Source: Candidatus Aminicenantes bacterium (GTDB lineage: Bacteria; Acidobacteriota; Aminicenantia; Aminicenantales; Aminicenantaceae). Taken from it: a stretch of 64,000 nucleotides of DNA. Every line of letters starts with the position of its first letter. Position 1 is the stretch's first letter. The notes below the pieces were generated by a model, which was given only the letters and a program-made list of their open reading frames with translations, was not told where the DNA came from and made no database searches. The translations under genes and the position numbers were made by a program. Location of the stretch: positions 5,899 through 69,898 of the forward strand of contig JAWODN010000121.1 of NCBI GenBank assembly GCA_046483285.1, written 5' to 3'. Positions 9,541-61,010 of this stretch are shown here, piece after piece.

Positions 9541-9900
9541 CGGTCTGACCTATACCTTAGCCTGAATTATTCATAAAAAAATTGCGATGTTTTTGCCAAT
9601 CTTTCCGTAACTGCGATATTCATCATTTTTATAAAAAGAACAAACATTACGTTTTTCCTTGCCGGCCTTTCATTATGATCGCAATTTTTTTACCCTTCGG
9701 GACGACATGCCGCTTTGTCATTGCGAGGCTTGCGCAAGCAAGCCGTGGCAATCCCTTTCTGCCTCGTGAAAGCGGAACCCGCCGCCCATACGAGGCAGTC
9801 AGGGATCCCTCGGTGCTTCGCACCGCGGGATGACATTGAATTAAAGAATTGTCGTCGTCTGCGGCAATCCCGGCCCGTGAATAAGCCAGACAAGTCTGAA
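9541..9900. repeat. copy of the mosaic intergenic repeat family: 9-bp-repeat remnant, module A (TTAGCCTGAnnTATTCATAAAAAAATnGCGATG), hairpin unit, module D
   Basis: 9561-9595 matches 13826-13858, 29369-29400 and 58276-58310. 9700-9835 matches the 155-bp tandem unit at 14058. 9836-9895 (ACATTGAATTAAAGAATTGTCGTCGTCTGCGGCAATCCCGGCCC) recurs at 29700-29750 and 58550-58600. Confidence 0.8.
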
Positions 9901-10128
9901 CTATACCTTAGAAAATCGAATCCTCGTGGCCATGGGAGCGGGAGATGGATCGCCGCCACGCGGATGTCCCCGGCGAGAACATCCGCTCCGATTCCGGCTT
10001 CGCTCTCCTCTCCTGCGGAGAGGAACCATGCCCGCTCAGCCTTCATACGGGCCGGCTTATCCATCATCCCGCCCCCATGGCAAAAGTTCAAAATCCGCGC
10101 CAATCGCGGCACGGCTGGCATATCAGGA

Positions 10129-11856
10129 TTATTTTTTCTGAAGCTCCTCCCTGGGTTTGAGGTCGTTGTATTCGATCAGCAGTTTCAGCCACCAATCCGG
10201 ATATTCCAGGGAATTCCGTTTCCGGTTTTCCGTGTCGTAAATCCAAAGGTGATTGTATTTGACCAGCAGCTGATCACCCAGTTCCCACCAGGCGTCCACC
10301 ACTCTGTGAGCGTTGCCGACGCTGTAATCAGTCAGGAAACGGATGGCTTGTTCCGGATCTTTTTGGTAAAGGCTGTGCGCGAATTCGTCCACTTGGGGGG
10401 TGCGGTCCACCGCAGATTTTTCCCATCTTTGCTGGGCTTCCCGGACGTCCTTTATGGCGTATGAATACACCACCTGGGTGTGGAAATCGACATAATCAAA
10501 GGCCCAGCGGGCGGAATCCCGGTTGAACTCCCAGTGGTCTCCGATTTCAAAGGAGCGGGGAATTTCGGTGATTCCCGAATAAAGCGGCATGAAGCAGGAG
10601 GTGTCCTGCGCGCCCAAAGCCAGCCAGACGATGCCTCCGATGGGATTGGGAAGCCAGTCCCGGGTTTGAGTGACGGTGACGTATTCGGCGCGGTTGACTC
10701 CGATGATCCGGGCGGTATCGTATCTTTGACCGTCCCGTTCGAATCCGTAAGGGAGGCGGTTGGGATTGGAAAAGGGCCCCCCTTGGACGCCGCGCGCCGG
10801 ATCAAAAGGTGTGCCTTCAAATTGGTCCCGGGTTATATTCATGACATCATGAACAGATAATTTTTGATCGGGCTTGACCGAAAAAGGAAATTCCATATTG
10901 GGGGTCTCCGGGCTGAATTCCCTGGAAGGGGCCGCCAGGTCGAAGAACCGCCACATCCGGGCGCGGGACCCTTGACTTTCGGCGGCGCTGGTCTCGGCGG
11001 GGGAATACGCTTTTTTCCAGTTGAAAGATTCTCCGCTGTCCGGGTCATAGAAACCCTGTTCTACTGCGTAGGAAATGACATTGGGAGAGGCCATGAATTC
11101 GTCAGGGTTGTCCAGATTGATTTTCCCGATGCGGGATTCATTGGGGCAGACGCTGACATGATCGTCGGGCACTCTTTGTGCGCACCAGACGGAGCCGGGC
11201 TTGCCGCTTTCCGGTGTCCAGAGCGGACCGACCGGCATGATTTCAAAGATCCAGACTTCGTTGGGATCGGAGACAGCCAGCATTTCTCCGCTATCGGTAT
11301 GGCCGTAGCCGTGGGCTTCCGTAAGCTCCCCCATAATTTTAATGGCTTCGCGGGCTGTGGACGCCCGTTCCATGGCGATAAGGGTCAGCATGGTGATGTC
11401 GAATTTGGCGGAAGGGGTGGGATTTTGCATTTTTTTCCGGCAGCCGATGGTGGACTCGCCCAGAGCGACCTGCTGGTCGTTCATGTATCCGAACATGCCG
11501 TGAATATAGGCATGAGTGCGGGGAACTTGAGGGATTTCCAATCCGGTGAAATCCTGTTTGTACAATTCCCATTTCAAGCCCTCACTGGGAGGCCAGGTGT
11601 GAAACTGATTGATGTGATAGATCTTGCGCATGGCTCCGGGTTCATGTTCGGCAGCCGGGACAAGGCGGAAAGTCCAGTCGCAGACACCGCAGTCGCAGGT
11701 GTGGGTGGTCATGACGGAACCGTCGGTTGAGGCCTTTTTTCCCACAATAACGACGGTGCATTTATCCGGGACGGGATAAACACTTTTTTCAGCCGCCGCG
11801 GTCCAAGCGGTTAACGCCAGGATCGCGCATAATACCCATGTGATTTTAGGTTTCAA
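10129..11856 (-). CDS. secreted peptidase, C69 family-like Ntn-hydrolase (dipeptidase)
   Basis: 575 aa. Signal peptide MKPKITWVLCAILALTAWTAAA, then CTVVIVGKKASTDGSVMTTHTCDC, which resembles the N-terminal Cys nucleophile region of C69/Ntn dipeptidases. TTG start at 11854-11856. Confidence 0.55.
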   Translation of the reverse strand: MKPKITWVLCAILALTAWTAAAEKSVYPVPDKCTVVIVGKKASTDGSVMTTHTCDCGVCDWTFRLVPAAEHEPGAMRKIYHINQFHTWPPSEGLKWELYKQDFTGLEIPQVPRTHAYIHGMFGYMNDQQVALGESTIGCRKKMQNPTPSAKFDITMLTLIAMERASTAREAIKIMGELTEAHGYGHTDSGEMLAVSDPNEVWIFEIMPVGPLWTPESGKPGSVWCAQRVPDDHVSVCPNESRIGKINLDNPDEFMASPNVISYAVEQGFYDPDSGESFNWKKAYSPAETSAAESQGSRARMWRFFDLAAPSREFSPETPNMEFPFSVKPDQKLSVHDVMNITRDQFEGTPFDPARGVQGGPFSNPNRLPYGFERDGQRYDTARIIGVNRAEYVTVTQTRDWLPNPIGGIVWLALGAQDTSCFMPLYSGITEIPRSFEIGDHWEFNRDSARWAFDYVDFHTQVVYSYAIKDVREAQQRWEKSAVDRTPQVDEFAHSLYQKDPEQAIRFLTDYSVGNAHRVVDAWWELGDQLLVKYNHLWIYDTENRKRNSLEYPDWWLKLLIEYNDLKPREELQKK

Positions 11857-11895
11857 TGATAACCTCCTTTTTGGCTTTTGCCAAAATTACTTATT

Positions 11896-12140
11896 CGTTC
11901 GAAAATAACAAAAATAGTCCATTTCGTCTGTCTGGTCTGTCTGGTTTATCTGGTCTATCTCGTTTATCTGGTTTATCTGGTCTGTCTGGTTTATCTGGTT
12001 TGAAAAGGGCGGGAAAGGCGAGAAAGGCGAGAAAAGCAGAAGGCCTCTGAAAAAATTAAACATGAACATTTTCATATCTTGCCTGTGGCGAAGCCCCCAT
12101 GGCAGCCGTTCGGAAGTGACACTCATGGCCGGCCCGCTCA
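11896..12140. repeat. mosaic repeat copy: 5' module (CGAAAATAACAAAAATAGTCCATTTCGTCT), eight 9-bp tandem units (GTYTRTCTG, 11926-11997), module E (GGCGAGAAAGGCGAGAAAAGCAGAAGGCCTCTGAAAAAATTAAACATGAACATTTTCAT)
   Basis: The same module order recurs at 38190-38340 (about 95% identity for module E). The 9-bp repeats match those at 13761-13823 and 18951-19004. Lies immediately upstream of the TTG start of the C69 peptidase gene. Confidence 0.8.
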
Positions 12141-12176
12141 TCATCCAAACTTATATACCTCGATGGCAGACTTGTG

Positions 12177-13541: not shown

Positions 13542-13629
13542 CTTATCCGGATTATATCAAAATCCTGAATGGAAGACACATGCGGGAAGATGATCCGTGC
13601 CCCTGCTCATTGTCCAGGCTGAGTGAGGA

Positions 13630-13658
13630 TTGACTTTGCTTCCCAATCTGACTATACT
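13630..13658 (+). promoter_or_regulatory. candidate sigma70 promoter for the tRNA (TTGACT-N17-TATACT)
   Basis: TTGACT at 13630-13635 and TATACT at 13653-13658, with a 17-nt spacer, about 25 nt upstream of the tRNA 5' end. Confidence 0.4.
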
Positions 13659-13682
13659 TGACCTCTGAAAAATTACCGTCAT

Positions 13683-13756
13683 GGCGGTGTAGCTCAGTCG
13701 GTTAGAGCATACGGCTCATATCCGTAGCGTCGGGGGTTCGAATCCCTCCACCGCCA
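13683..13756 (+). tRNA. tRNA with CAU anticodon (elongator tRNA-Met or lysidine-type tRNA-Ile2)
   Basis: Cloverleaf GGCGGTG/CACCGCC acceptor stem, D-arm TAGCTCAGTCGGTTAGAGCA, anticodon stem TACGG/CCGTA with loop CTCATAT, T-arm GGTTCGAATCC. The fully paired 1-72 pair argues against an initiator. CCA is not encoded. Confidence 0.85.
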
Positions 13757-13760
13757 TTCA

Positions 13761-13823
13761 GTTTATCTTGTTTGTCTAGTTTGTCTTGTTTGTCTTGTTT
13801 GTCTTGTTTATCTAGTTTGTTTA
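13761..13823. repeat. seven 9-bp tandem units (GTTTRTCTW) directly abutting the tRNA 3' end
   Basis: gtttatctt gtttgtcta gtttgtctt gtttgtctt gtttgtctt gtttatcta gtttgttta. Same 9-bp family as 11926-11997 and 18951-19004. Confidence 0.85.
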
Positions 13824-14057
13824 GCCTGACCTATTCATAAAAAAATGGCGATGACACCGTCCCCTTTGGGCGGGCCTGTCCCACCGCATCTGACTATCTC
13901 TTGTCATTCATGGTCACCCCGGGCGTTACTATGTCATCACGAGCGCCCCCTTGTCATCCCGGGAGAAGCGAAGGACCCCAGACTGCTTCGAATTGGCAAC
14001 CCATTGTTCATACGTCCTGGCGAAAGCACTCACAGATCCCTTTTCACTTCGCTCCCC
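13824..14057. repeat. mosaic repeat modules A and G (MITE-like palindromic unit GTCATCC...GGGACGAC)
   Basis: 13826-13858 is module A. 13936-14057 matches 29581-29700 and, reverse-complemented, 60700-60790. Its ends are an inverted repeat (GTCATCCTGAGCGGAGCGA / TCGCTCCGCTCCTCGGGACGAC in the 29581 copy). Confidence 0.75.
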
Positions 14058-14590
14058 GGGACGACATGCCCCTTGTCATTGCGAGGCTTGCGTCAGCAAG
14101 CCGTGGCAATCCCTTCCTGCCTGGTGAAAGCGGAACCCCCCGCCCATACCAGTCAGGGATCCCTCGGTGCTTCGCACCGCGGGATGACACACCCAAAGGC
14201 ACGGCGTGCCCCGGGACGACATGCCCCTTGTCATTGCGAGGCTTGCGTCAGCAAGCCGTGGCAATCCCTTCTTGCCTGGTGAAAGCGGAACCCCCCGCCC
14301 ATACCAGTCAGGGATCCCTCGGTGCTTCGCACCGCGGGATGACACACCCAAAGGCACGGCGTGCCCCGGGACGACAAGCCCCTTGTCATTGCGAGGCTTG
14401 CGTCAGCAAGCCGTGGCAATCCCTTCCTGCCTGGTGAAAGCGGAACCCCCCGCCCATACCAGGCAGGGATCCCTCGGTGCTTCGCACCGCGGGATGACAC
14501 ACCCAAAGGCACGGCGTGCCCTGGGACGACAAGCCCCTTGTCATTGCGAGGCTTGCGTCAGCAAGCCGTGGCAATCCCTTCCTGCCTCGT
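14058..14590. repeat. tandem array of a 155-bp hairpin-rich unit (3 full copies plus 1 truncated)
   Basis: GGGACGACATGCCCC recurs at 14058, 14213, 14368 and 14523, an exact 155-bp period with >95% identity. Each unit has an extended hairpin ATTGC-GA-GGCTTGC-GTCA-GCAAGCC-GTG-GCAAT and palindromes AGGGATCCCT, GGTGCTTCGCACC, GGCACGGCGTGCC. Single copies of the unit occur at 9700, 18700 (rc), 58415 and 60390-60660 (rc). Confidence 0.9.
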
Positions 14591-14685
14591 CTGAACCATC
14601 CGGATCCGGTACCGCTTTCTCTCTATAAAGCCGTCACGGATCCCTCATCACTACGTTTCTCAAGATGACATAGGGGCAACAAACG

Positions 14686-14724
14686 CAAGCAACGCAACAA
14701 ACGCAACAAACGCAAGCAACGCAA
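14686..14724. repeat. microsatellite (CAAACGCAAG/CAACGCAA units) at the 3' end of asnB
   Basis: gcaacaaacgcaagcaacgcaacaaacgcaacaaacgcaagcaacgcaa. Its reverse complement, a GCGTT-rich tract, is echoed at 18905-18945. Confidence 0.6.
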
Positions 14725-14732
14725 ATAAGGGG

Positions 14733-16643
14733 TCAGTCCAGGTAGTGATCTTTCCATATGGAAAAGACCAGCAGCGCCCAAATTTGATGACTGTTGTTCC
14801 GGGAGCCGTCAAGATGGCTGCGGATAAGGCGCTCCACCTCGCCGGTCCGGAAATAACCGTCTTGTTTAATCCGGGCTGAATCCAGCCTCTCCAGCATCAG
14901 TTCTTTCAGTTCCTCCCGGAGCCAATGCTTGATGGGGATGCTGAATCCTTCTTTTTTCCGGTAGATGTTCTCCCGGGGCAGGAGCCGCTCCATGGTTTTC
15001 TTGAGAAACCATTTGGTGGTCAGCCCCTTCAATTTATACCGCCCCGGCAGCCGGAACATGAATTCCACCACTTTGTGGTCGAGCAGCGGGACCCGCGTTT
15101 CCAGGGAAGCCGCCATGCTCATCCGGTCCACTTTGACCAGGATATCGTCGATCAAGTAGGTGTGCAGGTCCAGATAAAGTTCACCGTTCTGAGAGTCAAA
15201 GCTCTCCGCCTTTTGAAAAAAAGCCGGAAAAGGTGGGGTGTGATACAGGGGGCTGCCGCCGTTTAAGGATTCAAGGAATTCCGGGGTGTATAAGCGGTTC
15301 TTCGCCTGGGGAGAGAGAAATGTCATCCACCGGAAATGACGGAGCCGGGGATCCAATTCCAAACCCTGGCCGTAGCGTTGAAGCTTGTTCCAGACCCCTT
15401 TTTTTCTGGGAGAAGGCGGCATGCGGCGGGCGATATGGGGCAGGAGGGCATTCACCGGAGAAAGCCACGGCGACCGGGCCAGCTTTTGAGCCTGATAATG
15501 TTCGTAGCCGCCGCAGACTTCATCCCCCCCGTCTCCGGAAAGGATCACTTTAACGTGCTTTCGGGCCATCCGGGACACTAAATAGGTGGGGAAAATGGAG
15601 AAATCACCGAAAGGTTCATCCAGGTGGCGGATGAGTTTTTCGGTCAGTTCCAGGGCGTCGGGCCGGATGACGAATTCTTCGTGGTCGGTGGCGAATTTCC
15701 GGGCCACCCGGCGGGCGTGGCCCAATTCGTTGTATGAGCTGTCTTCGAACCCGATGGAAAAAGTTTTAAGAGGGGAGACACCCAGGTCCCGCATCAATCC
15801 CACTACGGCGGAGGAATCGATGCCGCCGCTGAGAAAAGCCCCCAGAGGGACATCACTGATCAATCTCATTTGAACCGATTCTTTCAGCAGGGCATAAAAT
15901 TCATCCTGCAGGGAATCAAGCGGGCGGAGGGGATCCGGATTATTTTGTTCAGGAGTGATGTCCCAGTAACGGCGGATATCCATTCGTCCCTGCCGGTACT
16001 GGAGGAGGCATCCGGCCGGCAGCTTGTGGATGTCAGTGAAGATGGAGCGGGGCGCCGGTATGTATTCCAACGTGAGAAAAAGATCCAGCGCCCGGGGATC
16101 GATATCCCGGGGCATTCCGGGGTAGGCCAGAACGGCTTTAAGCTCAGACCCGAACACCAGGGTCTTGTCCTGAAGCCGGGTATAATAAAGCGGTTTGATT
16201 CCCAGGCGGTCACGAAAAAGAAAAAGGCTTTTTGTCCGGTCATCCCATATAGCGGCTGCGAACATGCCCCGCAGTTTCTTGACCATATCCCGGCCCCATT
16301 CTTCATAGGCGTGCAAAATGGTTTCCGTATCCGTGCGGGTCTTGAAGCGGTGGCCCCGTCCGGCCAGTTCCTGTTTGAGTTCGGGAAAATTGTAAACTTC
16401 CCCGTTGTAAGCGATCCGGATGGTTTCATCTTCATTGGAAATGGGCTGGTGCCCGGTTTCCAGGTCGATGATGCTCAAGCGCCTGGCCCCCAGGGCGGCT
16501 CCCTGTCCGGCATACAAGCCTTGATCGTCCGGCCCGCGGTGGGTGATGGTCCGGCACATCGTCTCCAGGCGGTCCGCACTGGTTTTTGTCCTTGAATCCG
16601 GGAGCGCGAATCCGCAGATGCCGCACATGGTCACTCCGGCCAA
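14733..16643 (-). CDS. asnB: asparagine synthetase (glutamine-hydrolysing) family amidotransferase
   Basis: 636 aa. N-terminal Cys nucleophile MCGICGF. PP-loop SGGIDSS. Typical AsnB length. Confidence 0.85.
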   Translation of the reverse strand: MAGVTMCGICGFALPDSRTKTSADRLETMCRTITHRGPDDQGLYAGQGAALGARRLSIIDLETGHQPISNEDETIRIAYNGEVYNFPELKQELAGRGHRFKTRTDTETILHAYEEWGRDMVKKLRGMFAAAIWDDRTKSLFLFRDRLGIKPLYYTRLQDKTLVFGSELKAVLAYPGMPRDIDPRALDLFLTLEYIPAPRSIFTDIHKLPAGCLLQYRQGRMDIRRYWDITPEQNNPDPLRPLDSLQDEFYALLKESVQMRLISDVPLGAFLSGGIDSSAVVGLMRDLGVSPLKTFSIGFEDSSYNELGHARRVARKFATDHEEFVIRPDALELTEKLIRHLDEPFGDFSIFPTYLVSRMARKHVKVILSGDGGDEVCGGYEHYQAQKLARSPWLSPVNALLPHIARRMPPSPRKKGVWNKLQRYGQGLELDPRLRHFRWMTFLSPQAKNRLYTPEFLESLNGGSPLYHTPPFPAFFQKAESFDSQNGELYLDLHTYLIDDILVKVDRMSMAASLETRVPLLDHKVVEFMFRLPGRYKLKGLTTKWFLKKTMERLLPRENIYRKKEGFSIPIKHWLREELKELMLERLDSARIKQDGYFRTGEVERLIRSHLDGSRNNSHQIWALLVFSIWKDHYLD

Positions 16644-27573: not shown

Positions 27574-27577
27574 GATT

Positions 27578-29280: not shown

Positions 29281-29339
29281 CTTGATGATTTTAACGGATC
29301 ATAATTCAGATTCATTATACGAAAATTTAATTCTATTTC

Positions 29340-29765
29340 AAATCAACCTGCTAATCCTGACCCATTACTTAGCCTGACCTATTCATAAAAAAATGGCGAT
29401 GTTTTCATAATTTCTTTTTTTCCTAATATTTGCATGATTTTTTTGAGAATTCAATCTTGAACGTTTGTCATTATCCATATTTTCAATTTATTCGCCATTT
29501 TTTTACCCTTCGGGCGGGCCGGATCTCACCGCATCTGCCGGGTTGCGGCTCGTCGCAGTGAAGTGACGACCTTTCATTAATTTAATGTCATCCTGAGCGG
29601 AGCGAAGGATCCCGGACTGCTTCTAATTGGCAACCCATTGTCCATATGGCCTGGCGAAAGCACTCACAGATCCCTCGTCGCTCCGCTCCTCGGGACGACA
29701 TTGAATTAAAGAATTGTCGTCGTCTGCGGCAATCCCGGCCCATTCATCATCCAGGTTTGAAAATC
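29340..29765. repeat. mosaic repeat copy (module A, module F rc, module G, module D)
   Basis: 29369-29400 is module A. 29515-29580 (GGGCGGGCCGGATCTCACCGCATCTGCCGGGTTGCGGCTCGTCGCAGTGAAGTGACGACC) is the reverse complement of 38395-38510 and identical to the rc of 60795-60860. 29581-29700 is module G. 29700-29750 is module D. Confidence 0.8.
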
Positions 29766-29865
29766 CTGTGTTCGCAGCCCAAATATTTCTTGACCTGAAG
29801 AAGATTTTGATATAAAAAAAGAAAGAATGGCTTCGGGTTACGGGAAAACCCGCAAGGAGGGCAAA

Positions 29866-30096
29866 ATGGGTAAATTAAACACTTTGGACTGGATTTGTCT
29901 GATCCTGGTTATCATTGGAGGACTGAATTGGCTATTGGTCGGCGTGTTCAGTTTTAATCTGGTCTCGGCTATTTTCGGCGTCATGTCCGTCATTTCCAGA
30001 ATCGTTTACATTCTGGTCGGCGTTTCCGCGCTTTATGTCCTGATTTTTATGCTTCCTAAAATGGGGAAGAAAACGAAAACAGCCGTTACTCCATAA
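29866..30096 (+). CDS. DUF378-family small membrane protein
   Basis: Start moved to the ATG at 29866, with a perfect RBS AGGAGG at 29855-29860 and a 5-nt spacer. MGKLNTLDWICLILVIIGGLNWLLVGVFSFNLVSAIFG matches the DUF378 GGLNWGLVG motif. Two TM helices. Confidence 0.6.
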   Translation: MGKLNTLDWICLILVIIGGLNWLLVGVFSFNLVSAIFGVMSVISRIVYILVGVSALYVLIFMLPKMGKKTKTAVTP

Positions 30097-30225
30097 CCAA
30101 AAGTCCAGCTCGACACCGGTCCACTTCCTCTTTTTCCGGCCTCGCGGCGCCGGATAAGCCTGAATAATGAACTATGTTATGCGGACACCCCGTTTCTGAG
30201 CGGCCTGCTCATCAGCCGGGCTGGT

Positions 30226-32734: not shown

Positions 32735-32778
32735 TTTTTTCCTTCCCCGGTATTCTTCCCGCATTCTGAGAGAAAGAG

Positions 32779-37488: not shown

Positions 37489-37643
37489 TTGATTTAAAAG
37501 ATGATTTTACCAAGTCCGGGTTTTAAAATGCAACAGTTTGATGACATGCTGGTTCATAGGCATCAACCCCGGCCCGGGAATAAATCAGGTGAGTCAGAAC
37601 TGTGATTCGGAAAACTCCGGAGGAACTTCAGTTCTGCGGTGAA

Positions 37644-37792: not shown

Positions 37793-38176
37793 TTATTCCG
37801 GCGGCAGCGTCCTGAGGCTTAAAACATGCCAGGTCACTCCGGCGGCGATCCCTATCAGCACGATTTTAAGCCATAGCTGTTCCGCCGCCGCAACAACACT
37901 GATTCCGATGGTTATCCATAAAAGGATCAAAGTTGTTGCTTTGACTCCCCGGGTCACCACTCTTCTCTCCCGGTAATTTTTTATATAAGGACCGAACAGG
38001 CGGTGTGTCATCATCCAGTTATAAAGCCTTTCCGAGCTGCGGACAAAGCAAGCCGCGGCCAGCAGTAAAAAAGGAGTGGTGGGAAGCAAGGGGACCACCA
38101 CCCCCACCGCCCCTATAAAAACAAACAGAACGCCGGCGGACATTAGAAACCATTTGCGGAATGTCAATTTTTTCAT
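37793..38176 (-). CDS. DUF454 (YbaN-like) inner membrane protein
   Basis: Start moved to the ATG at 38174-38176 (MKKLTFRKWFLMSAGVLFVFIGAVGVVVPLLPTTPFLLLAAACFVRSSERLYNWM, the DUF454 pattern). The track start at 38335 reads into a mosaic repeat copy. Confidence 0.55.
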   Translation of the reverse strand: MKKLTFRKWFLMSAGVLFVFIGAVGVVVPLLPTTPFLLLAAACFVRSSERLYNWMMTHRLFGPYIKNYRERRVVTRGVKATTLILLWITIGISVVAAAEQLWLKIVLIGIAAGVTWHVLSLRTLPPE

Positions 38177-38560
38177 TTCACAACAGGGATACCCTGATTT
38201 AGTTCGAAAATAACAAAAATAGTCCATTTCGTCTATCTTGTCTACCTGGTCTGAAGGGGGCGCGAAAAGCGAGAAAGGCGAGACGTGCGAGAAAAGCAGA
38301 AGGCCTCTGAAAAAATCAAAAATGAACATTTTCATTTATCGCGTGTGGCAAAACCGCCATGAATAATTATTACTTAGCCTGGATTATTCACAGGCCGGGA
38401 TTGCCGCAGATTTCGGATTGCGGCGAGGAAGTCGTGGTACTTCACTACGACGAGCTGCAAGCCGGAAGATGCGGTGAGATTCGGCCTGCCCTAAGGCTAA
38501 AAAAATGGTTCGGGCGGGCCGAATTCCACCGGTCCCCGCGTGCCGGGAATATGATAAAAC
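38177..38560. repeat. mosaic repeat copy (5' module, short 9-bp units, module E, A-like module, module F)
   Basis: 38195-38225 (TTCGAAAATAACAAAAATAGTCCATTTCGTCT) matches 11896-11925. 38255-38335 matches module E at 12003-12075. 38395-38510 is module F (GGGATTGCCGCAGATTTCGGATTGCGGCGAGGAAGTCGTGGTACTTCACTACGACGAGCTGCAAGCCGG...). Confidence 0.75.
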
Positions 38561-38643
38561 CGGCTGCGTCTCTTTACGGAAAGACGAGATTGCTATATGA
38601 TAAAAAAAACAAGGGATGAGAAAAGAAAATTATATTCATTAAA

Positions 38644-39525: not shown

Positions 39526-39631
39526 CCTGACTTATACCTTTGAAAATGGCCGGACATGTCTCCCTGAAAAACACAGCAACAAAGGACCTCAGAACGCCTC
39601 GCCCGGCAAAATTTGAAACAAGGACACGAGC

Positions 39632-40669: not shown

Positions 40670-40677
40670 ACAGAAGA

Positions 40678-41520: not shown

Positions 41521-41651
41521 CCGGAAGGCTGAACTTTCCAGGCCGCTTCAGTCATAACTGAATTTCATACAGCCTTACCGTGACCCTTCTTCCGGTGGTC
41601 ATGGTTCGTGGTGTACGGCACCCCGGTCAAAGCCGATTGATCCAAAACCGG

Positions 41652-42554: not shown

Positions 42555-42641
42555 TTTTTTATTTTAGATGGATTTCTGAAATTATTCAACCGGGGCCGGT
42601 CAAAAGGCACAGCGGATTGATCCTCAAAACGGCTTGCCGAA

Positions 42642-43934: not shown

Positions 43935-44007
43935 TAATTCCTCGCGGTGTCAGGTTGATTTTCCCGTTTGCTTATACCACAGGAAATAAGCCGGGGTCAA
44001 ATCCAGG

Positions 44008-47000
44008 CTATATTTGAAGAGGGTCTTCCGCCAGGATACGGTCGAAAGTCTGGAGAAGCACGTCCGCGTTTTCTTCATTGAAAACCAGAGGCGGCTTGAT
44101 TTTGATCACGTTGCGGTCCGGTCCGTCCGTGCTGACAAGAATTCCTTCCTCCCTCATTCTCTCAGCCGCGTAGACAGCCTGGGCGGATGCGGGCTTGAAC
44201 GTCTCCCGTTCCTGAACCAGTTCCACTCCGATAAAAAGTCCCCTTCCCCGGACGTCTCCGATCAACGGATATTTTTTCTTCAAGCGTTCCAGCCCGGCCA
44301 TTATCCTGCTTCCGGTCAGCTGTGCATTTTCCTGAAGATTCTCCTGTTCAATGACGTCCAGAACCGCCATGCCGGCGGCGCAGGCCACGGGACTTCCGCC
44401 ATATGTGTTAAAGTATTCCATGCCCCCGGCGAACTTTTCCGCGATGCGGGGAGTGGTCACAACAGCTGCCAGGGGAAAACCATTGCCCATGGGCTTGCCC
44501 AGAGTGACGATATCCGGAATCACATTCTGCGTTTCAAAACCCCAAAAACAGCTCCCCGGCCTTCCGAACCCAACCTGGACTTCATCCGCAATGCAAACCC
44601 CGCCGGCCTTCCTGATGATCCGGTAGGCTTCCTCCAGATAACCGGGCGGAAACACAATCTGGCCTCCGCAGCCCGGAAGCGATTCCGAAATAAAAGCAGC
44701 CAGCCCCCTACCCCGCTCCTGAATCCTTTCGACGGCGTCCCGGACATGAACGGCGTATTTTTTCCCGGCCTCACTGTCGCCGTACCGGTAAGGCCCGCGG
44801 AAAAGATCGGGCATAACCACGGTTTGAGTATGAGGGGGTTTTCCCCGCCCCCCCGGGCCGTTGAATTTATAAGAGCTGATATCGATCAAAGAACCCAAGT
44901 TCCCATGGTAAGCTCCCTCCTCCGCAACGACATCCTGTCCCCCGCTGAAGCAGCGTGCCATTCGAAGGGCCAGGTCGTTGGCCTCACTTCCTGAATTGAC
45001 AATGGTGCACACCTGAAGGCCGCCGGGAAGCCGTTCCGCCAGCCGGCGGGCGTAGCGGACCACATCATCGTGCAGGTAACGGGTGTTCGTATTCAGCACG
45101 CTCAATTGCTTATTTACGGCATCAACCACACGCGGGTGCTCATGCCCGACATGGGGAACATTATTGACGGCGTCCAGGAATGCCCGGCCAGTGTGATCGT
45201 AAAGAAAACATCCGCTGCCCCGGACGATTTTGAGCGGCTTCCTGTAGGAAACACTTAAAGCCCCGAGAAGGTATTTTTTCCGGAGACGCAATATTTCCGG
45301 AACCGTAAGGGAATCATCCTTGATCTCTTCCTCAGGGAGGCCGGCGATGAGATTCGGATCCGGGCACAGACTCAACCACACATCTCTCTCGTCCGCCCGG
45401 GCCACACCCGGGAAATCTCCCGTGCGGCCAAGCATATCCATGATCAATTGAAAATGAAGATGAGGGGCCCACCCCCTGTTCTCGGATGAATCCCCCATCC
45501 ATCCAAAAATCTCCCCTTTTTTTATCACCTTCCCCGGATACACGCCTTCCAGAGAAGAAGCGCTGAGATGTCCGTAAAGAGTATAAAACTCAATGTCTTC
45601 GCCGCCGGCCCGGTGTTTGAGGATTATGGTGGGCCCATAATCCAGCTCACCGCGGTTATTCCGGAAGCTATGCACCTCACCGTCTAACGGCGCTTTCACC
45701 GGGCTTCCCGGCGGCATAAACACGTCTAAACCCAAATGAACGGTGCGGTCCTGAAAAAGATCACTGGTATACACCAGCCGGGCTTCGTCATAACGGCCGA
45801 TCCCGATGGTTTCCCCGGCTTTTTCCCGCCACGCCTTCATTTTCCGGTGCATGAGTTCCGCCGGTGTTAAACCTTTTTCATTTCCCAGCCAGCGGCTTCC
45901 TATGCTGAGATCAAACACAGTCCGTCCGGCTTGGTTCAAGGGAGGAACGGTGATCGGGCCGATTTCCGAACTCCGCAACTTCAGCCATTCCTCAATTCGG
46001 CTTGTGCGGGGGCAGGGGGGATAGCCGCAGGCGGCGCGGAAGGAATACCATGCGAAATCCGGAGATATCCGCTGCATTCGCTCCAGGAGCTTCCATACCG
46101 GATTCTCAGAAACAGACAGATAGGTGTTTCCGGGGTGAAGGGTTTTTTGGTAAGCGGAAATACAGACGCTCATCAAAAGCCTCAGCTGGATCAGGTTATA
46201 AAGGACCTTCAATTCTTTTTCCTGAAACGGCCGGCGGGAATGATATCCCGCCGCCGCCCGGCAAGCCGCCGGCAATGGATTCCGTTTGTCCAGCATCACA
46301 TAAGCGCAGACCACCGCCGCCTCCGCCAGTTTATACGTATAAATCATATCCCCGAAATCAATGATCCCCGCGACCCGCATATCTCCGAAGGATCCGGGCT
46401 CCCGGGAAGGAGGAGAAATGATAATATTGTGATCGTTACCGTCATTATGAATGAGCCCCATGGCCAGCCCGGCCTTTTCCAACCCGCCCTCCGACCGGAT
46501 CCGGCGGCTGAATTGTTCCACCAGGCCGGCTTTTTTCTTGTCCGTGATATGCCTTTTGAATTCATCGATCACAGAAAAGGCGTTTTTTAAATCCCATATC
46601 AATTCTCTGCGTCCGGCCGGATGAGAAAAATCCGCCAGAGACCTTTCCATGTCCCCGAAAAACTCCCCCACCCGAAAAAGCAGGTCCGAAGAGTGGGGGT
46701 TGACCTCCGCCAAAACTTTCCCGGGGAGATAACTCACCAGCCTGACAAAATGAACCCGGCCTTCTTGATTTTCCAACGTTTCCATATCCCGGCCGGATAC
46801 AGCCGGAATAAGCCGCGGACAGGAGCCGGCGGTCATTTTTTTATTCAAATGTTCCATCGCCTTGTTCTGAAGATCCAGGATGTCTTGTTTTTCTTCCGGA
46901 TTGGCGATCTTCAGCACAAATTCGCCTTTGTTTTCTTCCTTCAGATAAAAATTCTGATCCCGCTCTGACGGAAGCGGCTCCGCCTCCGCTTCTAATCCGT

Positions 47001-47115
47001 ATAAACACCGGGCGGCGGCCCCGGCCTCTTCCCGGCTGAATGAAGGCGCGCTTCCGGCTGTGGATTTAAAAACTCCGTTCTTCATGTGATTTCTCCTTAT
47101 CTTTATATTTTTCAC
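44008..47115 (-). CDS. three-domain fusion: APH-type (hydroxylysine/homoserine kinase II-like) phosphotransferase + M23 peptidase domain + class-III aminotransferase-fold PLP domain
   Basis: 1035 aa. N-terminal [12 protein letters not shown]...VLKIAN, catalytic loop [14 protein letters not shown] and IIDFGDM (APH fold). Middle domain has [23 protein letters not shown] (HxxxD) and YGHLS...[10 protein letters not shown] (HxH), i.e. intact M23 motifs. C-terminal domain has [11 protein letters not shown] and [11 protein letters not shown] (class-III aminotransferase fold, the family of ethanolamine-phosphate phospho-lyase). Confidence 0.75.
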
Positions 47116-47224
47116 AAATAATGATTGGATGTAAATCGGGAATTGCGGCTCGTGATCCGCGAATGGGGAAGTAAAGACTTTGATTGACGGTTTTTTTTGA
47201 CCATATCCCCGTAATATGATAATT

Positions 47225-47300
47225 TATATAATAATTTAGCCTGGATAATGAACGGGCCGGGATGGCCGCAGATGCGGGACGCAGGGCCTAAAGAGGAAGA
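47225..47300. repeat. short copy of mosaic repeat modules A and F
   Basis: TTTAGCCTGGATAATGAACGGGCCGGGATGGCCGCAGATGCGGGACGCAGGGCC is similar to 38370-38420 and 60125-60170. Confidence 0.55.
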
Positions 47301-47429
47301 AAAATCCGACAAAAAAAATTAAATAAAATTATTTCCACTATTCCGGGAACCTCCAGGGAAGAGCCTTGGAATTCCTTAAATATCGACCTCAGCGCGGTTC
47401 AATCCAATTTTCAATATCTCCGTTCGCGC

Positions 47430-48965
47430 ATGCCCGGCGAAGCAGTGTTTTATTCAGTGCTGAAAGCGGATGCTTACGGCCACGGGCTCCGCGAGATCGC
47501 CCTGGCATTAACCCAGGCCGGCTGCCGCCGCTTTGCTGTGGAGTCCCCGCAGGAAGGAATCCGGCTGCGAAACGAAGGGATCTCCTCCGAAATCCTGCTC
47601 ATGAATCCTATTCCTGATTGGATGGCGGAAATATGCGTTCAGAATGACTTAAGCGTCTCGGTCATTCACCGCTCCATTCTCACCCCCTTGGAAGAAGCCG
47701 CCCGGTCCATGGATAAAACCTGCCGGATTCATCTCAACGTCAATGTCGGACTTCACCGCATGGGTATCGCGCGGTCCAGGCTGCTGCAGGTGGCCCGGAA
47801 AGCCGAAAGAATGCCTCACTTGATTCTGCAGGGGATATTCGGGCAGCCCCGGACTCCGGATACCGCTCCACAGGCCTACCGGATGCTCAAAGACAGCTAT
47901 CATCAGTTAATCCAGAAGAACATCCGGCCCCTCAGCCTTCATTTCGCCAACAGCGCCGCTTTCTTGACATGTCCCGAAACCGCCGCGGAAGGAGCCCGGC
48001 TGGGCATTCTTCTATACGGGGTGCTTCCCATGGAAATCTACAAAAAGAAATCATCGCCGCCTCCTTTGAAACCGGCCATGAGCCTGGATACGGAATTGGT
48101 GCAGATCCGCGATCTCCCCCGCGGCAGCCGGTTTGGTTACCATTCTCACAAAAAAACAGATAGGGATATGCGGATCGGGGTGATCCCGCTGGGCTATTAT
48201 CACGGTCTCGACCGGAAAATGGCCCAAGGAGGATACGCACTGCTGCATGGGCGTAAAGCCTTTTTCCAAGGAAGCATTTCCATGAACGCCTCCACTCTCG
48301 ACATAACCGGAATCCCCGGCGGGAAAATCGGAGACCGGGTCACCGTCATCGGAAAGCAGGGGAATCAAACCATAGACATCAATCAACTGGCAGTCCAGGC
48401 CGGGACTATAGCCGCTGAACTCATGATGCGGCTGGGAGGAAATTTAGTCAAAACATACAGGCTGTCGGAAGGGGCTCCCTCCTATGGAATGCATATTGAC
48501 AAAGACCGCTTCGACGTCGATATCCTGTATTTACGCAGCGCCAAATCCCTTCCGGATTGGCTCAGCCTCTATGACATCGTTGGTTTTATCCAGCAGCAGA
48601 TGGGAGAATTCAGCGAACCGAGAGATGCTGTGGATTACGCCATCGGCTATGCGCTGTCCGCAGTGCGGCCGGGAAAAGGATTCATTTTTCTCTGCGTATC
48701 CGGGAAACGTATCATAGGCGCTTCCGTGTGCGTTCAAACCGAAACCCACGGTTTTATCCCGAAAAACATTCTTTTGTATCTATGTGTTCACCCCGAATTC
48801 CGGGGGAAAGGATTGGGAAAAGGACTGCTGCGGGATACCCTGACCGCCGGGGGCGGCGACTGTAAAGTCCACATTCAACCCGGCAACCCCGCCGCCGGTT
48901 TTTTTGAAAAAATGGGATTTGAAAAAAAATATCTTGAATACCGTTTTTCAAAAGGAGACACTTGA
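47430..48965 (+). CDS. alr: alanine racemase fused to a C-terminal GNAT acetyltransferase domain; the conserved N-terminus extends upstream of the first canonical start
   Basis: 511 aa. PLP-lysine motif VLKADAYGHG. C-terminal GNAT motif A HPEFRGKGLGKGLL. The in-frame upstream sequence back to the stop at 47289-47291 encodes LNIDLSAVQSNFQYLRSR, which aligns to the Alr N-terminus, but contains no ATG, GTG or TTG. Confidence 0.75.
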   Translation: MPGEAVFYSVLKADAYGHGLREIALALTQAGCRRFAVESPQEGIRLRNEGISSEILLMNPIPDWMAEICVQNDLSVSVIHRSILTPLEEAARSMDKTCRIHLNVNVGLHRMGIARSRLLQVARKAERMPHLILQGIFGQPRTPDTAPQAYRMLKDSYHQLIQKNIRPLSLHFANSAAFLTCPETAAEGARLGILLYGVLPMEIYKKKSSPPPLKPAMSLDTELVQIRDLPRGSRFGYHSHKKTDRDMRIGVIPLGYYHGLDRKMAQGGYALLHGRKAFFQGSISMNASTLDITGIPGGKIGDRVTVIGKQGNQTIDINQLAVQAGTIAAELMMRLGGNLVKTYRLSEGAPSYGMHIDKDRFDVDILYLRSAKSLPDWLSLYDIVGFIQQQMGEFSEPRDAVDYAIGYALSAVRPGKGFIFLCVSGKRIIGASVCVQTETHGFIPKNILLYLCVHPEFRGKGLGKGLLRDTLTAGGGDCKVHIQPGNPAAGFFEKMGFEKKYLEYRFSKGDT

Positions 48966-48968
48966 ATC

Positions 48969-54447: not shown

Positions 54448-54540
54448 TTTCTCCTAATCTGACCCATTCATTAAAAAATGACCCGGACAGGCGGATCTTG
54501 CCGCATCAGCGGCGATCCCGGCACGTGGATTAGCCAGGCA
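54441..54540. repeat. degenerate mosaic repeat copy in the rpoD/otsA divergent promoter region
   Basis: TAATCTGACCCATTCATTAAAAAATGACC resembles module A. The following GCCGCATCAGCGGCGATCCCGGC resembles module F. Confidence 0.4.
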
Positions 54541-54755
54541 AAGAATAATGTCTGAATGATTTTTAATGCAGCACCTGTTGGCTTGGAATTATTTTATCCA
54601 TAAAAAAACAAGGACGGCGATATCAACCGAAACCGCTGTAAAACATCGAAATCCATTATTGCACATTCCGGAGATTTTCGCAAATCAGACAGCTGAAAAT
54701 TGATGTGTAAACTTCTTTACAGACGGAGGAAAAACAAGGTAAAATTATATACAGG

Positions 54756-56966: not shown

Positions 56967-56982
56967 ACCACGACCCTCCTTA

Positions 56983-58224: not shown

Positions 58225-58254
58225 AACTATCTCCTTTCATATATCTGGCCTCTC

Positions 58255-58625
58255 CCTCAGCCTGGCCTATTACTTAGCCTGATCTATTCATAAAAAAATT
58301 GCGATGTTTTTGCAATCTCTTTCTTGTCAGCGATAAGCATGGTTTTTAATGAAAGATCAAATGGAACGTTTTTCATTTTTTTAATTGTTATTTTAATCGC
58401 AATTTTTTTACCCTTCGGGACGACATGCCGCTTTGTCATTGCGAGGCTTGCGCCAGCAAGCCGTAGCAATCCCTTTCTGCCTCGTGAAAGCGGAACCCAC
58501 CGCCCATACGAGGCAGTCAGAGATCCCTCGTCGCTCCGCTCCTCGGGACGACATTGAATTAAAAAATTGTCGTCGTCTGCGGCAATCTCGGCCCGTGAAT
58601 ACTTCAGGTTAGTGTAGAGAATGGG
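58255..58625. repeat. mosaic repeat copy (module A, hairpin unit, module D), forward orientation
   Basis: 58276-58310 is module A. 58415-58545 is one hairpin unit (GTCATTGCGAGGCTTGCGCCAGCAAGCCGTAGCAATCCC...). 58550-58600 is module D. Confidence 0.8.
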
Positions 58626-58672
58626 TTTTTTTTTGTCAAATCACAGCAGCCGCTGCCCGGCTGCGCCTCAGG

Positions 58673-59059
58673 CTAACTCTTTTTCCGGGTAAAAAACCGT
58701 TTCAGTTTTTCAGATAGTCCTTTTTTTTGATCTCCGTCTTCGATAATGAGTTTTCCTGTGGTGGTTCGAAAATAAGAATCTTCTTCCCGGCGAGGCGGCA
58801 TATGAAGCACGGTTTGATCATATTTTTTTCGTTTCTGGGGAACTCCGAGCACGCTGTAGGCTTGCTCTATTTTTTCAAGAACATCTTCCCGCTCAGCGTC
58901 TTTGATGAGACTGTAGAGGGCCATGGAACTGCGGCTGTATGCCTGCTTGCAGATCTGGTAAGCCCGGTGGATTTCCTCCTGGGATGCGCTTCTGGAAACG
59001 TCCATAATTTCATAATAGTTCATGTCTTCAATTTTTTTAAATTTCATTTGTTTTTTCAT
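58673..59059 (-). CDS. small hypothetical protein with J-domain-like helices but no HPD motif
   Basis: 128 aa. NYYEIMDVSRSASQEEIHRAYQI...KIEQAYSVLGVPQKRKKYD resembles J-domain helices II and III without HPD. Sits 33 nt downstream of the MinD-like gene. Confidence 0.35.
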   Translation of the reverse strand: MKKQMKFKKIEDMNYYEIMDVSRSASQEEIHRAYQICKQAYSRSSMALYSLIKDAEREDVLEKIEQAYSVLGVPQKRKKYDQTVLHMPPRREEDSYFRTTTGKLIIEDGDQKKGLSEKLKRFFTRKKS

Positions 59060-59092
59060 ACCTCAGGCCTGACATCGAAGCCCGCTTTTCAT

Positions 59093-60046
59093 TCAGGGGG
59101 GATACCCTGGATTTTCTTTATCTGTTTTGACCATTTTTTCCGCGATATTTTTAAAAGAAATCCCTGCCGGGGTATTTTGAAATTGATGGATAAAAGGGAT
59201 CATCTTTTTTACGCTGAGATGAATTTTCTCATCGAAGGGGATGGCTCCTATATAATTAATATTGATAACCAGGTGTTTTTGCACCACCTTGGTGATCGAT
59301 TCTCCCAGATAATAATCTCTTTCATCCCGGGCCTTATTGATGACCAGGCGCGGCTGAAAACGGGTCAAAGCCCGGTATAAAAGATCGGCATAATGTTGAT
59401 CATGAGAGATGATTTCCTCCAAAAAGCTGTAAATGGATTTGGAATTGTTTTTGACTTGAGAAGATGCTTTTTTAAAAAGATCCTGGATATTGTAATGTCT
59501 GCTGTACAGATTGAGAATACGCATTATGCAGGATTTAAGAAAATAATAGGAGTTTTCTATTGAAGTGGGTTCCGGATTGATCACCAATATGCCGGGGTTG
59601 GACAAAAGGAAAAAATCAACACAATTATATGAAGAACCGGTCCCAATATCCATGACCACACGCTTGGTATTAAAAGTTTTGATATGCCGCATCAATTTAA
59701 GCTTTTTATAGTAGTTTAAGTTGGATGTGAACAGAAGATCATCTGTTCCTTTTATCAAACGGAGGTTATCAAAAGGAGTGGGGACGAGAGTTTCTTTGAG
59801 AGCCGGGACTTCGTTGGAAATAAAATGACCGAGATCAGTCCGGGCTTTTTTTAAACCGAAAAAAGTATGAAGATTGGGGCCGCCGAGGTCGGCGTCGATC
59901 AAGACCACGTCTTCCCCCATTTGAGCCAGCAATAAACCAAGATTGGCGGTGAAAAAACTTTTTCCTGTTCCTCCTTTCCCTCCGCCGACAGCCCAAATGG
60001 TTTTCTGAGAGCCGGAATGGAAGGATAAAACCGGAATTTTTCCCAT
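59093..60046 (-). CDS. MinD/FlhG/ParA-type P-loop ATPase
   Basis: 317 aa. Deviant Walker A VGGGKGGTGKSFFTANLGLLLAQMGEDVVLIDADLGGPNL. Confidence 0.7.
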   Translation of the reverse strand: MGKIPVLSFHSGSQKTIWAVGGGKGGTGKSFFTANLGLLLAQMGEDVVLIDADLGGPNLHTFFGLKKARTDLGHFISNEVPALKETLVPTPFDNLRLIKGTDDLLFTSNLNYYKKLKLMRHIKTFNTKRVVMDIGTGSSYNCVDFFLLSNPGILVINPEPTSIENSYYFLKSCIMRILNLYSRHYNIQDLFKKASSQVKNNSKSIYSFLEEIISHDQHYADLLYRALTRFQPRLVINKARDERDYYLGESITKVVQKHLVININYIGAIPFDEKIHLSVKKMIPFIHQFQNTPAGISFKNIAEKMVKTDKENPGYPP

Positions 60047-60099
60047 GGGTATGCGTTTCTATAATTATTTCCGCTTTCACGCGAAGTTAAAACATTTTA

Positions 60100-61010
60100 T
60101 CATGATTATCTTCATTAAACCAGCCGTTCGGATCAACTGGGCGGGGTTGCCGCAGATGCCAAGTCAGGCTGGAAATATGTTCTTTTTTAATCAATCCATT
60201 GTATTTATATCTGATTTTTGGTATTTTATTTATCCGGACTTCACGTGACACAAAATTGATTCATGTCTGCTTTCAAGATGACAAGTTTTGTCATTTTTTA
60301 TATGAATTCATCATGAGCATAACACACCACGAAGGATGAAAATGATTTCAATGTCATTTCCGGACCGGAGCCCTTTTGAGTCTGTCATTCCGGGGCACGC
60401 CGTGCCTTTGAGTGTGTCATCCCGCGGTGCGAAGCACCGAGGGATTCCTTACTGCTTCGTCTTGGCGGTGGATTCCGCTTTCACGAGGCAGGAAGGGATT
60501 GCCACGCGGCCTCCGGCCGCTCGCAATGACAAAGCGGCGGGAAGGGATGGCCACGGCTTGCTGACGCAAGCCTCGCAATGACAAGGGGGGCAGAAAGGGA
60601 TAACCGCACGGCCTCCGGCCGCTCGCCATGACATGCTGTGTGTCATTCCGGGGCACGCCGTGCCTTTGAGTGTGTCATCCCGCGGTGCGAAGCGATGAGG
60701 GATCTGTGAGTGCTTTCGCCAGGCCGTATGGAGAATGGGTTGCCAATTCGAAGCAGTCCGGGATCCTTCGCTCCGCTCAGGATGACATTAAATTAATGAA
60801 AGGTCGTCACTTCACTGCGACGAGCCGCAACCCGGCAGATGCAGTGAGATCCGGCCCGCCCGAAGGGTAAAAAAATGGCGATTATAATGAAATACCGGCA
60901 AGGAAAAACGCGATGTATGTGCTTCTTATAAAAATGATGAATATCGGTGTTAATGAAAGATTGGCAAAAACATCGCCATTTTTTTATGAATAGGCCAGGT
61001 AAGGAGAAAG
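60100..61010. repeat. mosaic repeat cluster: module F, two hairpin units (rc), module G (rc), module F (rc), module A (rc)
   Basis: 60125-60170 is module F. 60330-60660 holds two reverse-complement copies of the 155-bp unit family. 60700-60790 is the rc of module G. 60795-60860 is the rc of the 29515 segment. 60975-61008 (AAAACATCGCCATTTTTTTATGAATAGGCCAGG) is the rc of module A at 58276. Confidence 0.8.

Follow-up and report, generated by a model that had tools for sequence, protein, structure and literature searches.

A probable mosaic of a TTAA-targeting miniature inverted-repeat element and tagged palindromic hairpins in the intergenic gaps of a Candidatus Aminicenantes genome stretch

Repetitive extragenic palindromic (REP) sequences carrying a CGTC tag are known from Proteobacteria, Chlorobi, Bacteroidetes, Spirochaetes and Thermotogae and have no associated transposase (Di Nocera, De Gregorio & Rocco 2013, PMC3733652). 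Their tag often reads TGTC or CCTC, the stems almost invariably start with complementary AT, the unpaired tails are short and most copies are dimeric; in the published families CGTC-1 to CGTC-4 the stems measure 8-9 bp, the loops 4-5 nt, and the tail consensus is CCA (PMC3733652). The dRS3 repeats of Neisseria are CGTC-1 members (PMC3733652). In Neisseria intergenic mosaic elements (NIMEs) the 20-bp dRS3 (ATTCCC-N8-GGGAAT) flanks RS elements of 50-150 bp in arrays, which are associated with surface genes and have been proposed to promote recombination (PMC1797815). Such arrays are said not to occur outside Neisseria. Here we describe tagged hairpins of this kind, together with a MITE (miniature inverted-repeat transposable element), within the intergenic gaps of a 64 kb stretch (the window) of a Candidatus Aminicenantes (Acidobacteriota) metagenome-assembled genome (MAG). 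The Aminicenantes (candidate phylum OP8) are uncultured and known from metagenomes alone.

An initial annotation of the window had described the repeats as a single family of modules (A, D, E, F, G, a 9-bp tandem module and a 155-bp unit), resembling bacterial interspersed mosaic elements (BIMEs) and other REP-type elements or a MITE family, and filling roughly 5 kb. Each of the eleven listed intervals was read and contains the modules as quoted; the ends given for module G are correct, and a tandem-repeat check showed the 9-bp arrays to be real. Self-alignment (blastn) recovered 3.3-3.4 kb of repeated DNA across 10 intergenic blocks, and a separate repeat finder recovered the same families. 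A block map that includes single-copy fragments and arrays comes to ~4.2 kb, i.e. 6.5% of the window and ~46% of its 8,969 intergenic bases; the abundance is thus real and the earlier figure slightly high. Of the gaps that reach 50 bp, 13 of 19 contain family members, as do 13 of the 16 that reach 100 bp; none were found in the gaps at 1400-1968, 13542-13681, 20519-20585, 41521-41651, 42555-42641 and 43935-44007. The intergenic repeats are best described, with a probability of about 80%, as two unrelated classes of selfish DNA, both non-coding and non-autonomous, nested into a mosaic and accompanied by period-9 microsatellites and by the unclassified two-copy module E. Both likenesses drawn earlier are borne out, as modules A, D and F make up a MITE and module G and the 155-bp unit consist of REP hairpins. 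The notion of a single family does not stand: apart from the microsatellites, no fewer than two unrelated families of elements are represented among the modules. MITE and tagged REP are kinds already known, neither of them previously described in the Aminicenantes phylum.

Modules A, D and F are the left end, the right end and an internal long hairpin, respectively, of a MITE that inserts at TTAA/YTAR sites with a 4-bp duplication. The basic form measures 146 bp and has perfect 28-nt terminal inverted repeats (TIRs; CCTGACCTATTCATAAAAAAATGGCGAT), and the ends common to all forms comprise 14 nt (CCTGAnnTATTCAy / rTGAATAnnTCAGG). The left boundary is sharp, with unrelated DNA followed usually by TTAA, TTAG, CTAA or TTAT and then by CCTGAnCTATTCATAAAAAAATGGCGATG, and the right end (module D) reads ...CATCTGCnGCAAyCTCGrCyCGTGAATAATyCAGG. 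Complete elements with the same ends fall into size classes of 40-57 bp, 146 bp, ~253 bp, ~287 bp and ~380 bp, within an overall range of 40-570 bp, and hold no conserved open reading frame (ORF). The dominant form (~253 bp; 40 of 94 elements) differs from the 146-bp form by the insertion of ~107 nt within one terminal repeat, between ..TATTCA and TAAAAAAATGGCGAT; this insert is module F, which folds as a long hairpin (DNA fold z = -4.3). Some subfamilies contain another interior module of ~150 nt (..GAAATTCAGATATGGCTTGTGCTCCC..GGCGTTAAAAATCTGAAGGGAGCACAAGCC..) with a long hairpin of its own, located at 83-370 in L128 and also present in L054, L056, L119, L040, L043 and L063 (~287-bp and ~380-bp forms); the window has no copy of it.

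At least 120 metagenome stretches match the core of module A in a scan of metagenomes, with unrelated flanks, and end-like matches amount to 554 in 970 kb. One sample contains seven identical MITE interiors with unrelated flanks, and contigs break ~90 nt into the element, which points to a high copy number and recent activity. The MITE-bearing loci that were checked (38-50% GC) trace to Aminicenantes, so that this is a true MITE family spread across a class-level lineage. A scan of viral contigs gave 0 matches and no autonomous parent of the MITE. Within the window, near-exact MITE ends are almost exclusively intergenic; looser matches (up to 2 mismatches) number 32 against 3-15 in shuffles and are partly due to chance.

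The flanks of the element carry the signature of insertion. Identical 4-bp flanks were observed for 39 of 94 unique complete MITEs, compared to 10.4 expected from shuffled partners, and flanks agreeing at three or more of the four positions for 67 of them. Among the MITEs with TTAA on neither side, 19 of 58 have identical flanks, compared to 2.3 expected and a maximum of 8 in 2,000 shuffles. The preference for the target is evident from flank composition, with TTAA at 30% versus 0.5% in the background and YTAR at 45% versus 0.95%. A clean pair of filled and empty sites is provided by L030, which carries the element, and L111, where the sequence is contiguous (81% identity), and comparison of the window with L010 likewise gives a filled and an empty state for MITE sequence. 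A 2-bp TA duplication of the IS630/mariner type was considered and rejected, since the outer flank positions co-vary in direct orientation. TIRYT, the RAYT-type TIR elements of Acidobacteria (RAYT, REP-associated tyrosine transposase), were judged an unlikely identity for the MITE, the GGGGWSAS motif being absent. HUH transposases are not known to leave a target duplication.

Module G and the 155-bp unit are built of hairpins of 27-39 nt, tagged at the 5' side with (T)GTC; their stem starts A-T, T-A and their 3' tail is rich in C. Among 50 units found with a covariance model the tag reads TGTC in 42, CGTC in 3 and CCTC in 1, the stem begins with AT in 48, and the tails are C-rich (CCC 18, CTC 12, CTT 8, CTG 5), differing from the published consensus CCA. 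To examine the structure, 12 variants were aligned, taken from the window and from five other loci. Compensatory double changes, proposed earlier as a check on the fold, occur in 8 of the 11 base pairs of this alignment, and 96.9% of its cells are paired, compared to 75.3% in shuffles (0 of 500 reach the observed value) and 22-60% with the partners slid. Alignment columns 4-5 pair with columns 35-36 in 11-12 of the 12 sequences. Around a conserved loop, GAGGAGCGrAGCGACG, the closing stem is ATTGC/GCAAT, ATCAC/GTGAT, ATTAC/GTAAT, GTCCC/GGGAT or ATCCT/AGGAT. A stem is either split by an internal loop (5 + 6-7 bp), or has 12 bp and a 3-nt loop, or closes a loop of 11-18 nt with 5 bp. The units pair tail-to-tail with the tags outward, the partners having different stems (heterodimers) and structured spacers between them; a doublet folds with z = -6.0, and such doublets were found in the window and in L040, L043, L060, L063 and L113.

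The covariance model, which derives from this alignment, returned 21 matches in 6 intergenic blocks of the window, plus one weak match in a gene (E = 0.64), and 31 units in 891 kb of other loci. Generic detectors of GTCAT plus a stem performed no better than shuffles (96 vs ~100 and 44 vs ~55 matches); the specific head motif does discriminate (70 matches vs ~19 in shuffles), as does the covariance model. The largest assembly of hairpins is a REP array at 13952-14590 (+), where a G-like doublet (13952-14066) is followed by the 155-bp unit in 3.4 tandem copies (14054-14587, 98% matches), confirming this unit as annotated. Each copy consists of H1 (+), a spacer hairpin, H2 (-) and H3 (-). H1, 28 nt long, has exact matches in five MAGs of the collection, one in each and apparently all outside the source species. 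Four of the MAGs are labelled Chloroflexia, Gammaproteobacteria, Oscillospiraceae and Ca. Zapsychrus (collection labels, taken as given), and in these other hairpins of the class adjoin and the MITE is absent; the fifth is an Aminicenantes relative carrying a Eubacteriales label. A literature search with the hairpin strings returned primers only, and the supplementary files of PMC3733652 held no matching sequences. Judged by tag, stem start and pairing, the hairpins fit the CGTC/TGTC-tagged REP superfamily, within which their stem and loop dimensions, being outside those of the four CGTC families, make them new families.

The two classes are closely intertwined. In the window, all 6 REP blocks lie inside or adjoining MITE sequence, and in AT-rich Aminicenantes metagenome loci 9 of 9 REP sites lie inside MITE copies. 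REP doublets occur at no fewer than three distinct positions within MITEs and with different stem types, most often directly 3' of the hairpin at the apex of the long-hairpin module, as in the window copy at 29373-29756. This placement at or beside the hairpin apex implies that the doublets either target such hairpins or travel as MITE cargo. The doublets may have a preference for MITE hairpins as insertion sites, or may be carried around by those MITE subfamilies that bear REPs; the direction of nesting would presumably be REP into MITE. A more far-reaching proposal, which we put forward tentatively and consider possible at clearly less than even odds, is that TGTC-tagged REP doublets spread in Aminicenantes by nesting in the apical hairpins of the TTAA-MITE and riding along, or via a hairpin-specific inserting enzyme. 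If true, it would offer a concrete dispersal route for CGTC-type REPs, and NIME-like mosaic arrays would arise outside Neisseria through parasite-on-parasite nesting.

Comparison with related genomes, also suggested at the outset as a test of mobility, gave a positive result: besides the filled and empty pair described above, gaps are shorter in relatives. In three relatives the gene order around the repeats is kept and the gaps are much shorter: gaps that span 1191, 320 and 602 nt in the window have orthologues of 495, 107 and 208 nt (L007) or 335, 155 and 41 nt (L011). In the relatives these gaps hold just one or two degenerate hairpins. In L010, whose AsnB is 94% identical, the tRNA-Met/asnB gap is without the MITE segment that bears the terminal repeat and without ~620 nt of REP array. 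L007 and L005 are contigs CAZDJZ010000001.1 and CAZDJZ010000019.1 of GCA_964505785.1, titled "uncultured Eubacteriales bacterium". Synteny between this assembly and the window extends over ~20 kb, and the two AsnB proteins share 81% identity; on these grounds the assembly appears to be an Aminicenantes relative whose label is probably in error.

Several observations weigh against the reading as a MITE and REP mosaic. The target duplication is imperfect in 55 of the 94 MITEs. The sequences of the covariation alignment were picked by hand from matches to the 5' head motif, and the stem and loop sizes differ from those of the four published CGTC families. The count of nested REP sites in the metagenome loci is biased to MITE-proximal REPs by the selection of these loci for containing the MITE. 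Copy counts cover the 64-kb window and the metagenome loci, the source species being apparently absent from the genome collection searched. Finally, no transposase or recombinase domain was found among the window proteins, and none encoded by those ORFs of the related loci (906 kb) that were examined, i.e. the ones flanked by MITE ends or recurring across loci. Long TIR-bounded intervals in the loci enclose housekeeping genes, and clustering of 826 ORFs from the loci gave no multi-copy transposase-like family.

The MITE is probably moved by cut-and-paste through a DDE-type transposase encoded elsewhere. Its 4-bp TTAA/YTAR signature would suit an enzyme of the IS5 group or one like IS1380/piggyBac, which we offer as a lead only. 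The IS5 group follows a YTAR target rule with a 4-bp duplication, IS1380/piggyBac-type transposases target TTAA, and both groups share with the MITE the 4-bp duplication of TTAA/CTAA/TTAG/CTAG. Ends beginning CC...GG are presumably a further likeness to piggyBac, IS1380 and IS5. IS1380 is cited as a distant prokaryotic relative of piggyBac (PMC10140906). The REP hairpins have multiplied locally through tandem duplication, giving BIME/NIME-like arrays.

Selection by the host offers a different explanation, in which the elements are retained for regulating or structuring the chromosome. They might stabilise mRNA 3' ends, bind proteins as E. coli BIMEs do, serve as promoter modules or, as proposed for the NIMEs of Neisseria, form arrays that promote recombination beside surface-protein genes. 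Such a reading could draw on the preservation of hairpin structure by compensatory change and on a 38-nt hairpin that is 92-100% identical in distant phyla. Moreover, arrays flank the type IV pilus clusters, following pilQ (9527) and preceding the minor-pilin operon (19553), in parallel to the association of NIMEs with surface genes (PMC1797815), and module E lies directly upstream of two gene starts. Still, the orthologous gaps of relatives are without most of this material while the genes are intact, the elements occur in convergent, divergent and tandem gaps alike, and a palindrome would also be preserved by a hairpin-recognising mobilisation enzyme. Promoter and terminator scans of the repeats gave nothing consistent. 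The role as intrinsic terminators that had been suggested for them was rejected, as the repeat hairpins have no T-runs and gave no convincing match. Two tRNA genes are the sole Rfam matches in the window, at the gathering threshold and at E <= 1; this also rejects a known non-coding RNA as the identity of the repeats. With neither a convincing terminator or promoter signal nor an Rfam match, a role in gene expression is unsupported, though possible, and any effects on neighbouring genes are putative. We consider host selection improbable.

The initial view of one composite element, in which all modules spread as a unit and shorter forms are deletion derivatives, is largely refuted and now very unlikely. 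The modules are always physically linked in the window, where the copies at 9561-9891, 29373-29756 and 58278-58608 combine MITE ends with REP doublets, two of these copies having 93% identity; a MITE that carries REPs would in fact spread in one piece. Most metagenome MITEs (146 and ~253 bp) are nevertheless devoid of REP hairpins, and the same hairpins are found apart from the MITE in loci that bear the labels Chloroflexia, Gammaproteobacteria, Oscillospiraceae and Omnitrophota. The occurrence of doublets at several positions in the MITE, with different stem types, argues for separate insertions, and the 155-bp array grew by local tandem duplication. That the mosaic is an artefact of assembly or binning, with repeats collapsed or chimerically joined into an arrangement found in no real chromosome, is hardly credible: the window comes from a MAG, such repeats do break assemblies (many metagenome contigs stop ~90 nt inside the MITE) and the copy number of an array such as the 155-bp one is easily misjudged in short-read assembly, yet part of the window, with the gap that contains a MITE fragment, is matched by an independent Logan contig, >100 independent contigs from many samples show this architecture again, complete with target duplications and unrelated flanks, and the gene order around the repeats agrees with three relatives.

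The MITE and REP mosaic can be followed through the window copy by copy; it includes three complete MITEs, one copy swollen to ~900 bp, one short copy and at least seven fragments. The complete copy at 9561-9891 (+, 331 bp) has the left flank TTAG, its left TIR and A-run at 9561-9589 (module A), an AT-rich core, an inverted A-run near 9679-9693, a nested REP doublet at 9717-9834 and the right end at 9846-9891 (module D) with the degenerate TIR GTGAATAAGCCAGAC. Its counterpart at 58278-58608 (+, 331 bp), 93% identical to it over 212 nt (match at 58390-58601), shows a perfect TTAG/TTAG duplication and a nested REP doublet at 58435-58552. The third, at 29373-29756 (+, 384 bp; flanks TTAG/TTTG), comprises the left TIR and core, an inverted A-run and the long-hairpin module, in which the apical hairpin is followed immediately 3' by a nested REP doublet at 29587-29699 (module G); the right end of the copy is a variant, ..CATTCATCATCCAGG. 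The long copy is reversed and spans 60097-60999 (-, ~900 bp); its left TIR is at 60986-60999, its right end near 60097-60150 is degenerate with an uncertain boundary, and seven REP units at 60416-60786 enlarge its interior, among them an array of a 49-bp unit in 2.9 copies (60487-60633). The short, degenerate copy at 54458-54541 (+, ~84 bp) runs from TCTGACCCATTCATTAAAAAATGAC to CGTGGATTAGCCAGG between the flanks CTAA and CAAA.

Among the fragments, a left end of the short form at 13825-13905 (+) consists of TIR, A-run, cggtgt and GGGCGGGCC.., the start of the long-hairpin module; its TIR and A-run are missing in L010. An internal piece with A-run and AT-rich core lies at 18536-18627 (-). Solo ends are found at 30159-30172 (+; variant B, CCTGAATAATGAAC, flank TAAG), at 37555-37589 (+; right end ..CCCGGCCCGGGAATAAATCAGG, upstream of tRNA-Val) and at 39526-39555 (+; a degenerate left end, TTAG followed by CCTGACTTATACCT..). 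A partial MITE at 38378-38513 (-) is reversed and retains the right end CCTGGATTATTCAC, the long-hairpin module (the module F for which z = -4.3 was obtained) and the A-run, and a further reversed right-end fragment, TTAG followed by CCTGGATAATGAACGGGCCGGGATGGCCGCAGATG, lies at 47240-47285 (-). Apart from the array beside asnB, REP units cluster at 18674-19125 (+), with H3, H2 and H1 at 18704-18852, a 9-bp array at 18952-18995 and another unit at 19089-19122. A REP unit with ~55 nt (..GAATGTCAGCGTCTTCATATAA.AACCGT..) is common to the window (19040-19125) and L007 (15618-15700), where it sits in a different gap (C69/secretin) of the 81% relative, as opposed to the pilin-upstream gap of the window; this suggests a further mobile unit of REP plus tail.

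The 9-bp arrays are microsatellites of several different units (GTYTRTCTG, GCAACAAAC and GGCGAGAAA; GTCTATTCA in a relative). They are located at 11926-12034, 13760-13824, 14676-14724, 18952-18995 and 38225-38300 in the window, at 163-202 and 6109-6149 in L005 and at 3905-3946 and 4151-4204 in L010. The array at 13760-13824 (+, AGTTTGTCT in 7.2 copies) is directly 3' of tRNA-Met, and a related array occupies the same place in L010. The unit GTCTATTCA resembles a subterminal part of the MITE end, CCTATTCAT; across all loci compared, period-9 arrays do not consistently adjoin MITE ends. Module E does exist as annotated, in two copies only in the window (11966-12101 and 38226-38361, 77% identical over 136 nt) and with no match in any other locus compared. 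The first forms part of a block at 11894-12101 (-) just upstream of the C69 peptidase start, together with arrays of GTYTRTCTG (11926-12001) and of three copies of GGCGAGAAA (12008-12034); the second, at 38199-38361 (-), is accompanied by a short 9-bp array. Both hold a small ORF (MKMF.F.FFRGLLLFS...DEMDYFCYFRT), which at 11894-12076 (-) ends ~40 nt before the C69 peptidase start and at 38199-38335 runs in frame into a DUF454 gene, giving a mechanical ORF of 180 aa at 37793-38335 (-). This could be due to chance, to a leader peptide or to a mis-set gene start. Spurious ORFs, which the repeats had been said to generate, do exist mechanically. The largest array ORF has no homologue among 5.8 billion proteins and is thus not a gene, nor are the other mechanical ORFs across the array. 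The mechanical ORF at 16631-18586 (-, 651 aa) runs over the MITE fragment at 18536-18586; its orthologues have 609 aa, so that the true start is probably near 18460.

The genes of the window are ordinary housekeeping genes, among them a type IV pilus cluster and those for C69 peptidase, TilS, AsnB, ResB/CcsA, TrpS, RpoD and OtsAB. The asparagine synthase matches an NCBI MAG protein at 100% identity, and its best named relatives all belong to Aminicenantes; an exact match to TilS was not on record. The organism also occurs in the sample SRR31818007. The PilQ-type secretin at 7343-9526 (+) has N-terminal TPR repeats and a C-terminal cohesin domain, as in relatives, which is unusual for a type IV pilus secretin. 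Two unusual fusions were noted: a 1035-aa protein at 44008-47115 (-) with APH-type kinase, peptidase M23 and class III aminotransferase parts, and a 511-aa protein at 47430-48965 (+) that joins alanine racemase and GNAT acetyltransferase. Lastly, a segment of ~200 bp with tRNA-Met and a promoter-like upstream sequence (..AATCTGACTATACTTGACCTCTGAAAAA..) is inverted with respect to asnB/tilS in the window (13620-13760) and L010 (4205-4330), relative to L007 (12040-12190) and L011 (7900-8010), in a gap full of inverted repeats.

Abundant MITEs and hairpin arrays explain fragmented Aminicenantes assemblies and orphan intergenic ORF calls, and MITE insertion polymorphisms could serve as strain markers. 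The target preference together with the 28-nt ends provides a precise handle on the parent transposase, and the nesting of REPs in MITE hairpins makes the movement of RAYT-less REPs a testable question. Taken with the fit to the CGTC/TGTC-tagged superfamily, the hairpins extend it to Acidobacteriota and, by label, also to Chloroflexia, Omnitrophota and Oscillospiraceae loci.

Compared with described MITEs, such as Correia elements (Neisseria), Nezha (cyanobacteria) and MITEAba12, the element agrees in size (40-400 bp), in having no ORF, in its TIRs and target duplication, in high intergenic copy number and in the occurrence of deletion and insertion derivatives. It differs in its unrelated ends, in an unusually long TIR (28 nt) with an A7 run and in the 4-bp TTAA/YTAR target. 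The hairpins share with E. coli REP/BIME and Pseudomonas REPIN-RAYT systems the extragenic inverted pairs, the BIME-2-like tandem arrays of hairpin, linker and hairpin, and a conserved tetranucleotide head beside a compensatorily varying stem; the architecture of the 155-bp array resembles E. coli BIMEs, for which binding of IHF, gyrase and Pol I is a feature. In contrast to REPIN-RAYT systems, the head is TGTC rather than GTAG and no RAYT (Y1 HUH transposase domain) was found among the window proteins. With the CGTC superfamily they have in common the unpaired 5' tag, the A-T/T-A start, inverted and mostly heterodimeric pairs, structured spacers, mosaic arrays and no transposase gene found in association, as well as co-residence with a MITE, which in Neisseria is the Correia element. 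The short C-rich 3' tail is a partial likeness, reading CCC/CTC/CTT instead of CCA. They depart from the superfamily in stem and loop sizes, in the nesting of units in a MITE and in a host, Acidobacteriota/Aminicenantes, outside the five reported phyla. NIME arrays are a closer likeness than E. coli BIMEs, and NIMEs also share gaps with a MITE (PMC1797815): here hairpins such as ATCCCGCGG..CCGCGGGAT flank spacers of 50-60 nt in arrays, with units that are longer than dRS3 and unlike it in sequence.

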